A stretch of DNA of 9,449 bases from IMG/VR virus record IMGVR_UViG_2718218100_000013; one strand, given 5' to 3'. The stretch comes from a virus (lineage: Duplodnaviria; Heunggongvirae; Uroviricota; Caudoviricetes). Numbering within the stretch: the stretch's first letter is position 1; the number at the start of each line of letters is the position of its first letter. The notes beneath the pieces are model-generated. The model did not search any database and was not told the DNA's origin. It worked only from the letters and a program-made list of their open reading frames with translations. The translations under genes and the position numbers were made by a program. Below are positions 293-962 of the stretch, piece after piece.

Positions 293-962
293 CCCGATAT
301 GGGTATCCCCACCTACCTGGCTTTTTTTCCGGTTAAATGTTAATCAGGCTGGTGGCCTTTACATACCCTTGATCACGGTAATGATGATTCAGGTGCGTAC
401 CTTTTCCCCAGTGGGGTAAAAGCTCCAACCGTAACGATGTTCGTTGTGGTTGCCTTGATGGTCTGCGTGGTCATTATGACCATTCAGAATTTGAAGGGTG
501 ATGTTTCCGATCTCCTCAAATTGAGGATTGTGGAAGAATCAATGGGTTAGTCTTACTTTCCCAACATCCCCCAATGGGGGTTTTCGAAATAATCAATGGG
601 TTAGGCCATAGTGCAATTTTGCACTATGGAACAATTCCAACCAGTTATCGGCATCAGGCCCACCAGCCAACGCAATTTTGCGCTTTGCTTTAATCTCAGT
701 AAGTTACCGCGCCAATTTCCGCAGTCTGTGGAAATTGGGAAGAATCAACGGGTTAGGCTGGTTTCCCCGATGTTCGCCGCTGGCGAATTTCGAAAATATC
801 AACCAGTTACCGCCGTATCCCGATATGGTGATCCCCATATCGAGATTGGATACCTGGCTTTTTTTCCGGTTAAACGTTAATCAGGCTGGTGGGCTTTACA
901 TACCCTTGATCACGGTAATGATGATTCAGGTGCTTCCCCGATATGGTGATCCCCATATCGGG
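293..962. repeat. Composite repeat family: 83-bp direct repeat (314-396 and 851-933, 81/83 identical) each preceded by a CCCGATATGG-containing palindrome (293-313 degenerate, 819-844), with a third perfect palindrome copy at 937-962
   Basis: Direct comparison of the two 83-bp copies shows two mismatches. The 937-962 copy has 10-bp arms CCCGATATGG / CCATATCGGG around spacer TGATCC. Track ORFs across it (139-336, 611-880, 678-1001) share peptide repeats only because of the DNA repeat. Confidence 0.6.

Follow-up and report, generated by a model that had tools for sequence, protein, structure and literature searches.

The window analysed here, the whole stretch of 9,449 nt, is 100% identical to E. 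coli 2014C-3061. Bases 1–106 are chromosomal and are present in 5,424 of 5,426 E. coli genomes; a PICI-type phage satellite sits between clpS and cspD. All the satellite genes are on the minus strand. Beyond the last of them, between that gene and the att junction, is a non-coding array of about 700 bp (279–965) that holds at least 11 dyads together with sites matching the IHF consensus. A preliminary description of this DNA drew attention to a repeat and hairpins at 293–962, which are one corner of the array. That reading overlooked the IHF consensus at a fixed distance from the dyads and the homology of the units to the interiors of roi and KilA-N genes. Two direct repeats, TTAACTACACC (175–185 and 187–197, plus strand), mark the satellite end and lie outside the array. 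They are probably the integrase arm-type sites of the att arm, a role that we infer. The same repeat occurs in three other satellite loci (L003, L004 and L006), and another repeat replaces it in L005, which has a different att site.

The region had been described as non-coding, and we agree. The open reading frames at 611–880 and 678–1001 have no Pfam or PHROG match. As proposed, the peptide repeats in these frames simply follow from the repetition of the DNA: from one unit to the next the reading frame changes. We also rejected the frames at 139–336 and 870–1061 as coding (no Pfam or PHROG match) and a small hydrophobic frame at 437–550, which is not intact in relatives.

A match to the array is present in 1,381 of 5,426 complete E. 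coli genomes (about 25%). Related mosaic arrays occupy the same position in satellites with different integrases, att sites and packaging modules. The repeat is satellite-specific rather than a generic chromosomal one: every related copy that we looked at has an att junction on one side and packaging genes of a satellite on the other. A scan of species-representative genomes for copies outside E. coli returned only seven matches, all unrelated. The IHF-tail pattern in five viral contigs (L014, L019, L020, L023 and L030) proved to mark unrelated loci, and one palindrome type of the array (U5, below) occurs in viral contigs at chance level, except in one further divergent array (L206). At least 24 of 27 loci keep one orientation of array to satellite operon, and L037 has the opposite one; this conservation is also compatible with an element that acts as RNA, or with nothing more than shared ancestry. 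We found no description of the array in the searchable literature, and the same search returned nothing connecting PICI ends with IHF or Roi.

Palindromes, Chi octamers and the 83-bp module

The recurring palindrome of the preliminary description is present as three copies that share the arm CCCGATATGG, at 293–311, 819–844 and 937–962. The last (U10, CCCGATATGG-TGATCC-CCATATCGGG, 937–962) is perfect, as had been described, its 10-bp arms separated by 6 nt. The final gene of the satellite, on the minus strand, ends in a stop codon at 979–981, and 17 nt further downstream comes this palindrome, predicted to form a hairpin of −15.9 kcal/mol (z=−3.8). The second (U9, CCCGATATGG-TGATCC-CCATATCGAG, 819–844) has an 8-bp perfect stem with the outer arm CCATATCGAG, has no IHF site, and forms one end of a 118-bp indel. 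The first (293–311) was said to have lost its right arm; it is indeed truncated, with an intact left arm, but the CCA of the right arm is still there.

A Chi octamer, GCTGGTGG (279–286, plus strand), adjoins the truncated copy, and the homologous palindrome of L006 and L012 has Chi octamers in inverted orientation on its two sides (GCTGGTGG...CCACCAGC). Exact Chi octamers start at 279, 348 and 885 on the plus strand and at 660 on the minus strand, making four in the array and eight in the window. The CCCGATATGG palindrome matches a dyad within a phage KilA-N gene as well as intergenic phage hairpins. The pattern CGATATGGnnATCnCCATATCG occurs in more than 120 viral contigs, inside a KilA-N gene in one (L247) and just ahead of a terminator in two others (L255 and L256). 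None of the copies at 293, 819 and 937 has an IHF site or the dyad-plus-IHF geometry described below, and we regard this palindrome as an IHF-less member of the dyad bank.

Two 83-bp modules on the plus strand accompany the palindromes, at 314–396 and 851–933. As reported, they differ at only two positions (338, T/C; 356, C/G; 81/83 identical); with a repeat finder the match reaches 88 nt (314–401 versus 851–938, 95% identical). The first copy contains a hairpin, ACCTGG-T7-CCGGT, the sequence GTTAAATGTTAAT and a Chi octamer at 348–355. Its T7 run is the loop of that weak hairpin rather than a tail. The second copy has its Chi octamer at 885–892 and is missing from otherwise identical satellites. 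Other satellites conserve the first 49 nt of the module.

The near-identity of the two copies had been taken as conservation. We read it as recent local duplication and not long-term conservation. The satellite of E. coli strain 9000 is identical over window positions 1–1000 except for a precise 118-bp deletion, placed at 819–936, that takes out one palindrome and the second module. Recombination between the palindromes on either side appears to have duplicated or deleted the module recently, and natural satellites can do without its second copy.

The earlier suggestion was of a structured cis element. Region 280–980 folds far better than shuffled sequences on both strands (z=−7.6 and −10.7), and the palindrome at 937–962 also folds better than shuffles. 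The 83-bp unit does not: its folding is that of shuffles on both strands, with z of 0.13 and −0.87 for the first copy and 0.13 and 0.04 for the second. We conclude that the module is a separate, unstructured element with a Chi octamer. The more specific proposals of a small RNA or a terminator found no support, with no Rfam 15 match in 1–1000 even at E≤1 and no intrinsic terminator-like site on either strand of 1–1200. A candidate promoter in the module, TTTACA-16-AATGAT (at 358–385 in the first copy, and present in both), was rated weak and set aside; the number of promoter-like sequences equals the shuffle expectation, and by our own reading the promoter-like spacing would be about 14 bp in the L003-type module variant.

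Dyads, IHF sites and their counterparts in phage roi genes

Between the two modules lies a series of eight dyad units. U1 (400–422), CCTTTTCCCCA-G-TGGGGTAAAAG, is an imperfect palindrome. The sequence after it, CTCCAACCGTAAC, departs too far from the IHF consensus to count as a site. U1 is conserved beside the module in L003, L004 and L024. U2 (468–482, TGGTCAT-T-ATGACCA) has an IHF-like site with two mismatches at the usual offset. The remaining six are on the plus strand. U3 (508–549) combines a 25-bp dyad at 508–532, core TCCTCAA-A-TTGAGGA at 513–527, with an exact IHF consensus, AATCAATGGGTTA, at 537–549. U4 (562–603) has the core CCCCCA-A-TGGGGG at 568–580 and an exact consensus at 591–603. 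U5 (606–647) is a perfect dyad with 11-bp arms, CCATAGTGCAA-TT-TTGCACTATGG (606–629), and a degenerate IHF-like site, TTCCAACCAGTTA (635–647). U6 (660–706) opens with the reverse complement of Chi (660–667); its core, CGCAA-TT-TTGCG at 671–682, extends imperfectly over 665–689, and a near-IHF site with one mismatch, TCTCAGTAAGTTA, follows at 694–706. This unit type is also found in L003, L004, L012 and L017. U7 (712–755) has a dyad with 13-bp arms, CCAATTTCCGCAG-T-CTGTGGAAATTGG (712–738, 12 of 13 pairs), and an exact consensus at 743–755. U8 (768–809), the commonest unit type across satellite loci, has the dyad TTCGCC-GCT-GGCGAA at 773–787 and an exact consensus, TATCAACCAGTTA, at 797–809.

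Exact matches to the IHF consensus that we used, WATCAANNNNTTR, number four in the 9.4-kb window (about 0.3 expected by chance, on our own estimate). All four are in the array and on the plus strand, at 537, 591, 743 and 797. Moreover, the first base of each is 17 bp (U3, U4 and U8) or 18 bp (U7) from the dyad centre, on one side only. The same spacing recurs elsewhere. The 28 satellite loci compared hold 60 distinct IHF-consensus sites, and for 42 of these a dyad has its centre 16–17.5 bp upstream, compared with a mean of 1.9 and a maximum of 7 in shuffled controls, although the units are related by descent and the counts are not independent events. The dyads at these sites fall into 18 inner-arm types, with symmetry over 25 bp. 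Starting instead from 98 distinct dyads, which avoids circularity, IHF-like sites occur essentially only at that offset and on one side. In such arrays the IHF consensus accompanies roughly a quarter to a third of the dyads, and some 70% have no IHF site. A repeated dyad followed 17 bp on by WATCAANNNNTTR is a practical signature of E. coli satellite ends.

Where do the units come from? By BLAST they fall on one segment of about 60 nt (nt about 113–170) in different genes of the roi/Rha family. Phage roi alleles are highly conserved except at residues about 42–63. Each allele has its own dyad there, and four of five, HK022 included, have a single exact IHF consensus at nt +153; the dyad-plus-IHF geometry is found in roi of JLK-2012, PA5, EH2246 and HK022. 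Clerget and Boccard (1996, J Bacteriol 178:4077) reportedly found that HK022 Roi binds a site in its own gene, with an IHF site closely linked to it. The rha genes of phi80 and P22 are related to HK022 roi. A sequence search found no homologue of Roi with a solved structure.

U3, U4, U7 and U8 each match the hypervariable internal segment of a different roi allele, at 23–25 of 27 bases, where the null for a 27-base dyad matched to the best of seven alleles has a mean of 9 and a maximum of 17. The closest is U3 (window 499–555), which is 91% identical to the interior of roi in phage JLK-2012 and Stx1a phages (E 4e-12; 25/27). U4 matches the Roi gene of the Stx2 II, PA5, HK629 and PhiR12 phages (87.5%, E 1e-3; 24/27), U7 a dyad with 12-bp arms in the Rha-family gene of Stx1_14744 (86.5%; 24/27) and U8 the Rha-family gene of Stx2_EH2246 (81%; 23/27). 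Among the seven alleles compared, U1, U2, U5 and U6 have no counterpart. A unit of the HK022 type occurs in the L012 array. Identity with phage alleles is perfect over 44 nt in L037 and over 38 nt in U3, which suggests recent exchange with phage.

Two simpler accounts of this homology were rejected. The units are not decayed roi pseudogenes: only Roi residues 42–58 match satellites, and the conserved flanks never do. Nor do they reflect adaptation to a resident prophage, the JLK-type roi allele being mostly absent from satellite-carrying genomes (33 of 36 show only the satellite's own copy of the 57-mer). The strains that bear these satellites include O157:H7 and other Shiga-toxin strains, and their toxin phages carry matching roi alleles.

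What the array may do

The architecture of the array, its geometry, its homology to phage genes, its distribution and its polymorphism are all observed, and from them we infer that Roi and IHF may bind it and that it may act in sensing or as a decoy. We give an even chance to the proposal that the array is a DNA-level bank of operator-like sites for helper-phage regulators and IHF. On this reading the dyad-plus-IHF units are copies of the module in the hypervariable segment of roi/Rha (codons about 42–56) and would work as double-stranded DNA operators. When a helper expresses a regulator of the Roi family or the KilA-N type, the regulator and IHF would assemble on the cognate satellite unit. 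The satellite could then sense or use the helper regulator, or titrate it off its autoregulatory site, and many allele-specific units would widen the range of helpers. Counting against the proposal are the usual absence of the cognate JLK-type roi allele from genomes with this satellite, the roughly 70% of array dyads that have no IHF site, the four units with no phage counterpart, and the conserved orientation of the arrays.

A broader version is more tentative, and we hold it to be a good deal less probable: that E. coli satellites carry an evolvable 'operator library' of allele-specific sites, each with its IHF site, captured by recombination from the roi/Rha and KilA-N genes of many potential helpers, which detects or disarms the helper at hand by recruiting or titrating its DNA-binding regulator. 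Such a library would parallel a spacer array, though at the DNA level and directed at proteins, and would add a hitherto unrecognised layer to the arms race between satellites and helpers, and the hypervariable region of roi would be evolving under satellite pressure. If the units do bind helper regulators, they would be a cis-acting, multi-specificity 'sensor or decoy' element, the first of its kind to be reported from phage satellites. The proposal would also assign a role to the Roi/Rha regulators, which are poorly understood, and explain a hypervariable roi segment that doubles as its own operator.

Could the array instead be recombination debris, or a hotspot with no dedicated function? 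The att-proximal end of a satellite might gather shuffled fragments, pieces of helper genes among them, with palindromes and Chi sites promoting breakage and illegitimate or short-homology recombination. Several features would fit. The arrays are highly mosaic between satellites; the 118-bp indel falls precisely between palindrome copies; half of a Chi-flanked palindrome is fused to U5 at a junction in the window; the 44-nt and 38-nt stretches are perfectly identical to phage roi; and Chi octamers are frequent in both the array and the window, as counted above. However, the dyad-plus-IHF segment is the only part of roi that occurs in the arrays; the neighbouring coding sequence, which is far more conserved, never does. 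The dyad-to-IHF geometry is held across the 18 dyad types with no coding constraint, and the arrays keep one position in about a quarter of E. coli genomes beside differing gene modules. We consider this explanation unlikely.

Somewhat less likely again is an element that acts as RNA, either as a string of hairpins on minus-strand read-through of the late operon that protects mRNA 3′ ends or serves as attenuators, or in a variant form: the units run antisense to the sense strand of roi, and so might base-pair with the helper's roi or KilA-N mRNAs and lower their expression. The folding of the region above shuffles on both strands (z of −7.6 and −10.7), the place of U10 17 nt past the last stop codon, the antisense orientation to satellite genes in at least 24 of 27 loci, the 38 nt of perfect complementarity between U3 and JLK-type roi, and the CGATATGG...CCATATCG hairpin that precedes intrinsic terminators in several phages would all suit such a role. 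Against it, positions 1–1200 hold no terminator-like site and there is no Rfam match, the L037 array is oppositely oriented, and U4, U7 and U8 are complementary to their alleles only in interrupted stretches. Mismatches within the dyads show no G-U bias on either strand in our own tally of units. An RNA-level role gives no reason for an IHF consensus to stand on one side of dyads that vary in sequence, at one set distance from them, and U7 retains the phage dyad, with the phage flank swapped for an IHF consensus that is missing in the phage allele.

The preliminary description also raised a packaging site. In the form considered here, the dyads and IHF sites would make up a cosB- or pac-like signal at which satellite TerS and helper TerL would start packaging. 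The array does lie at the end of the terS-capsid operon, IHF aids lambda terminase at cosB (PMC9026076), and Chi near a packaging end could, we suppose, protect against RecBCD. We think this very improbable. There is no cosN: no cosN-like 12-mer, allowing up to two mismatches, occurs in 1–1000, and the only one in the window is at 4359–4370. Related arrays stand beside at least three packaging modules: one has a Terminase_2-type TerS and a capsid-like gene, the second a P27-type TerS and TerL, and the third a further terminase small subunit and head genes. That speaks against a pac site specific to one TerS. The dyads of one array differ in sequence, so a single TerS could not read them all, and the GTAAC repeats around the terS start (2317–2600) are a better pac candidate. 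An accessory att arm, whose IHF sites and dyads would help build the integrase-excisionase complex, is equally improbable: the array does adjoin the att junction and the arm-type repeats at 175–197, with a near-IHF site at 109–121, but about 430 bp separate the junction from the first exact IHF site, satellites with different integrases, arm repeats and att sites have arrays in common, and L006 shares the att site of the window yet has an array of different composition.

Comparison with known systems

Several known repeat classes resemble the array in part. BIME or RIB-RIP elements consist of palindromic REP units flanking an IHF site at operon 3′ ends in E. coli; like the array they are extragenic, mosaic and repetitive clusters of palindromes with an IHF consensus after the last gene. 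However, no REP consensus core or tail occurs in 1–1000, even with two to three mismatches, and the array's dyads are diverse in sequence rather than one family, confined to phage satellites and homologous to phage genes. A CRISPR array, in which identical direct repeats of about 28–37 nt alternate with unique spacers, was rejected: the units share a 13–20-nt IHF-type tail with variants, their variable parts are palindromes, and there is no cas-like gene. Integron attC sites were likewise set aside, the inverted core pair RYYYAAC ... GTTRRRY, 40–120 nt apart, being absent from both strands of 1–1000; the units nevertheless end in GTTAGGC. The module recalls the Chi hotspot (GCTGGTGG), the exact octamer being found in both copies and at 279–286, with its reverse complement at 660–667, but the octamer accounts for only 8 of the module's 83 bases and is a candidate site by sequence.

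For the sensor reading, the nearest parallel is the set of P2 Cox boxes at P4 PLL. These too are repeated satellite sites for a helper-encoded regulator, and the P2 Cox protein is a helper-encoded DNA-binding protein that activates its satellite there. All Cox boxes share a single short direct-repeat motif and lie upstream of a promoter, whereas the array has many allele-specific dyads plus IHF sites and lies downstream of its operon. For the decoy reading, the parallel is datA, a non-coding cluster of regulator sites with IHF that lowers the active pool of a DNA-binding protein. With its DnaA boxes and essential IHF site, datA is chromosomal, experimentally established and of one specificity (DnaA); the array would have many predicted specificities.

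The closest likeness is to the internal site of HK022 roi and its family. There, too, a dyad is accompanied by an IHF consensus, 17 bp from the dyad centre, and the window units share sequence identity with the homologous segment of four roi alleles. In phage, the module is single, in frame and inside the gene for its own protein. In the satellites, by contrast, it is non-coding, multiplied, mixed in allele type and detached from any roi gene.

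An IHF-linked dyad array beside the att junction

The window matches the chromosome of E. coli 2014C-3061, and those of many O157:H7, O103 and O121 strains, at 100% identity. Positions 1-106 are chromosomal (clpS-upstream/yljB sequence found in 5424 of 5426 complete genomes), and everything beyond belongs to a phage satellite of the PICI type that sits between clpS and cspD. Its genes all lie on the minus strand and include those for an integrase (8226-9449), AlpA (7140-7364), a D5-type primase (3769-5517), a small terminase (2065-2553) and, last in the satellite, a capsid-family protein (979-1902). 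This layout places the duplicated module and its palindromes within a non-coding stretch of ~870 bp, from the att junction to the stop codon at 979-981.

Within that stretch, positions 279-965 form an array of at least 11 palindromes, or dyads, whose folding is far more stable than that of shuffles whichever strand is taken (z = -7.6 and -10.7). The exact IHF consensus, WATCAANNNNTTR, occurs four times in the 9.4-kb window, each time on the plus strand of the array (537, 591, 743 and 797); by our estimate ~0.3 would be expected by chance, although the four sites derive from one another as copies and so are not independent. Every one comes after a dyad (units U3, U4, U7 and U8), with the first base of the consensus 17 bp from the dyad's central base (18 bp for U7), which corresponds to 16.5-17.5 in the half-open coordinates of our across-loci tests.

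This spacing holds across loci. Starting from IHF sites in 28 loci, a dyad was centred 16-17.5 bp upstream at 42 of 60 distinct consensus sites (200 shuffles: mean 1.9, maximum 7). The IHF-linked dyads comprise 18 inner-arm sequences, with 5-13-bp arms and 0-6-nt spacers; their symmetry reaches an outer CG...CG pair, making a 25-bp dyad, and is lost when the partner column is shifted by one or two positions. To avoid circularity we also started from the dyads. For the 98 distinct perfect dyads that 17 arrays contain, IHF-like sites with no more than one mismatch lay almost only at the fixed offset, and only on one side: 30% at 16.5, 14% at 17.0 and ~0 elsewhere. From these counts, roughly one-quarter to one-third of dyads are IHF-linked. 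The remainder, including the palindrome noted with the module, have no such link.

Other E. coli satellites have arrays of the same type in the same position, with the att junction on one side and the last packaging gene on the other. The satellites are inserted variously downstream of phoQ, at yejO or at clpS, and differ also in their arm-type repeats. The adjacent packaging modules consist of a Terminase_2 TerS and a capsid-like gene, of a P27-type TerS and TerL, or of a different terminase small subunit together with genes for major capsid and decoration proteins. Each array is a mosaic in which some units are shared and others private; of the 5426 complete E. coli genomes, 1381 contain a match to window 400-850. 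Divergent palindrome arrays are present in three viral contigs of unknown taxonomy (L206, 1250-1720; L022, 3200-3800, reverse complement; L031, 11400-11970, reverse complement). Some of their dyads are followed by an IHF consensus at this offset too, so the architecture is not confined to the E. coli satellites that we examined.

Several further features were seen in the window. A small plus-strand ORF for a hydrophobic peptide (MFVVVALMVCVVIMTIQNLKGDVSDLLKLRIVEESMG, 437-550) overlaps dyads U2 and U3, with no convincing ribosome-binding site visible; similar ORFs occur in the compared loci L004, L005 and L006, but L003 and other loci have it interrupted or in another form. A one-mismatch IHF site (109-121) lies exactly at the chromosome-satellite junction, and three CGAACAA-type direct repeats (200-240) separate the arm-type repeats from the array; both features may be sites for the intasome or for an excisionase (AlpA). 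Around the terS start (2317-2600), GTAAC(T)n repeats (GGTGTAACTTTT...) in both orientations are a candidate pac site or operator of the packaging operon. Iterated GGGTAGAGG motifs with inverted repeats immediately downstream of the primase gene (3569-3761) are probably the satellite replication origin. Within the primase gene, 4359-4370 on the minus strand matches the lambda cosN cohesive end at 11 of 12 positions (GGGCGGCGACCC versus GGGCGGCGACCT; ~0.04 such matches expected by chance, by our estimate).

The duplicated module, its palindrome and Chi

The preliminary description reported an 83-bp duplication differing at two positions, and indeed the copies at 314-396 and 851-933 have 81 of 83 positions in common, the repeat pair extending to 88 nt at 95%. 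Its account of the palindromes is likewise accurate: the one at 937-962 pairs perfectly, its 10-bp arms separated by a 6-nt spacer, the one at 819-844 has a perfect 8-bp stem, and the right arm is missing from the one at 293-311. The conservation read into the two modules did not survive. In strain 9000 and several other O157:H7 strains the satellite differs over window 1-1000 only by the precise deletion of 118 bp, placed at 819-936, which takes out one palindrome and the second module, exactly as recombination between two direct palindrome copies would produce. Since otherwise identical satellites carry this deletion, the near-identity of the copies reflects recent duplication, not conservation. 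Nor does the module alone behave as the structured element proposed for it: on either strand of each copy it folds no better than shuffles (z = 0.13, -0.87, 0.13 and 0.04).

The module is matched in 943 of the complete E. coli genomes. In relatives the array has a single copy, on its att-proximal edge, and the module is missing from some arrays despite the same integrase (as in locus L006). Its conserved part is the first ~49 nt, comprising a T-loop hairpin, GTTAAnnGTTAAT, Chi and TTTAC; a weak promoter-like pair changes spacing in a variant form. The sole function we can assign to the module is that of carrying Chi.

Exact Chi octamers (GCTGGTGG) number eight in the window, four on the plus strand (279, 348, 885 and 4730) and four on the minus strand (660, 1722, 7007 and 8558), and half of them lie in the array. 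By our estimate a random sequence of this length would have ~0.3, and one with the average density of the E. coli genome ~2, so that eight is a clear excess. It suggests selection for RecBCD protection or recombination in the satellite. A 24-nt inverted repeat (83%) pairs the left edge of the array (264-287, GCCATCCGTTATGAAGCTGGTGGA) with 8557-8580 in the integrase gene, both arms including Chi or its complement.

The palindrome itself is widespread. Viral contigs match its pattern CGATATGGnnATCnCCATATCG, or hairpin CGATATGGGAATCCCCATATCG, more than 120 times, and two contexts were seen. In contigs L247 and L250 it lies within a 253-aa KilA-N-domain gene beside cI (L247, 4228-4989, minus strand; Pfam KilA-N 8e-27), where it encodes RDMGIPIS and where, read by eye, a one-mismatch IHF-like site (ATTCAATCATTTA) begins 17 bp from the dyad centre. 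The commoner context is intergenic, directly before an intrinsic terminator (for example in contigs L255 and L256), and the hairpin is also present in some virulent coliphages (Gluttony, Lust, Pride and GeorgBuechner). Satellite versions differ only in their central bases. In L006 and L012 the palindrome sits between inverted Chi octamers; in the window one such Chi-flanked structure is split, so that 279-311 holds Chi and the left arm, and ~650-667 the right flank and reverse-complement Chi.

Array units and the variable segment of phage roi genes

Searched by BLAST against 50,697 phage records, the array has essentially one target: the interior of lambdoid-phage roi or 'DNA-binding protein' genes, which are of the Rha family and KilAC antirepressor-like. 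Separate units match separate alleles: U3 (499-555) those of JLK-2012 and Stx1a phages (91%, E 4e-12), U4 (566-605) those of Stx2 II, PA5, HK629 and PhiR12 (87.5%, E 1e-3), U7 (712-748) that of Stx1_14744 (86.5%, E 5e-2) and U8 (767-809) that of Stx2_EH2246 (81%, E 2e-1). The match always starts 113-127 nt into a gene of ~720 nt.

An alignment of five Roi proteins shows high conservation except at residues ~42-63 (roi/Rha-family genes: L001, 2888-3610; L007, 1074-1796; L008 and L009, both 1079-1786; L038, 4656-5381). This hypervariable stretch is encoded by an allele-specific dyad: TCCTCAAaTTGAGGA in JLK, CCCCCAaTGGtGG in PA5, CGCCAaTGGCG in EH2246, CAATTTCCACAGaCTGTGGAAATTG in 14744 and CTGCAtTGCAG in HK022. 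The gene's only exact IHF consensus comes after this dyad, at nt +153, in four of the five. Because palindrome and IHF consensus together encode the hypervariable stretch, one run of nucleotides is both the putative operator and the code for the variable protein segment.

Units and alleles pair one to one. In centred 27-nt comparisons U3 agrees with JLK at 25 positions, U4 with PA5 at 24, U7 with 14744 at 24 and U8 with EH2246 at 23 (best of seven for 5000 random window 27-mers: mean 9, maximum 17). The HK022 allele has its counterpart in a unit of L012, CCTGCAtTGCAGG, and even sub-variants co-track, with CCTCAATTTGAGG common to L006 and the phage allele group of L086. That the units are not decayed roi genes is seen at the protein level, where only Roi residues 42-58 ever match satellites and the adjacent, far better conserved sequence never does.

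Recent DNA exchange is indicated by perfect identity with phage alleles over 38 nt in U3 and over 44 nt, upstream coding sequence included, in a unit of L037, an EcCIMP1-like PICI at tRNA-Thr (12420-12470). The L037 unit has the look of a recent junction made by recombination from phage to satellite or the reverse; its array is oriented oppositely to the window's relative to att.

Readings of the array

The dyad-IHF distance is fixed across sequence-diverse dyads, the IHF site is one-sided, and U7 retains a consensus that its phage counterpart lacks. These properties point to the units being double-stranded DNA sites for dimeric proteins beside an IHF-induced bend. They fit the report of Clerget and Boccard (1996) that HK022 Roi binds inside its own gene beside an IHF site, with IHF stabilising the complex. 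We therefore read the array as a putative bank of operator-like sites that would sense, recruit or titrate helper-phage regulators. Against this count the usual absence of a JLK-type allele from genomes with this satellite, and the many dyads—most of them—with no IHF site or no phage counterpart.

The mosaicism, indels and Chi octamers are compatible with a recombination hotspot. A role at the RNA level is possible, the antisense orientation relative to satellite genes being conserved in at least 24 of 27 loci. The small RNA and terminator suggested earlier find no match: the array is not a terminator, cos site, attC site or CRISPR array, and belongs to no known RNA family.

We found no description of such an array in the searchable literature on PICIs, cf-PICIs, Roi and IHF, and there is a real chance that an operator-like bank represents a new type of satellite-helper interaction. 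In kind, we rate the array among clustered protein-binding sites with IHF, as known elsewhere. BIME/RIB elements similarly combine palindromes and IHF after operons, but have a REP consensus that the array lacks. Like datA, the array would be a cluster of regulator sites using IHF or, like the P2 Cox boxes on P4, a set of sites for helper-to-satellite transactivation.
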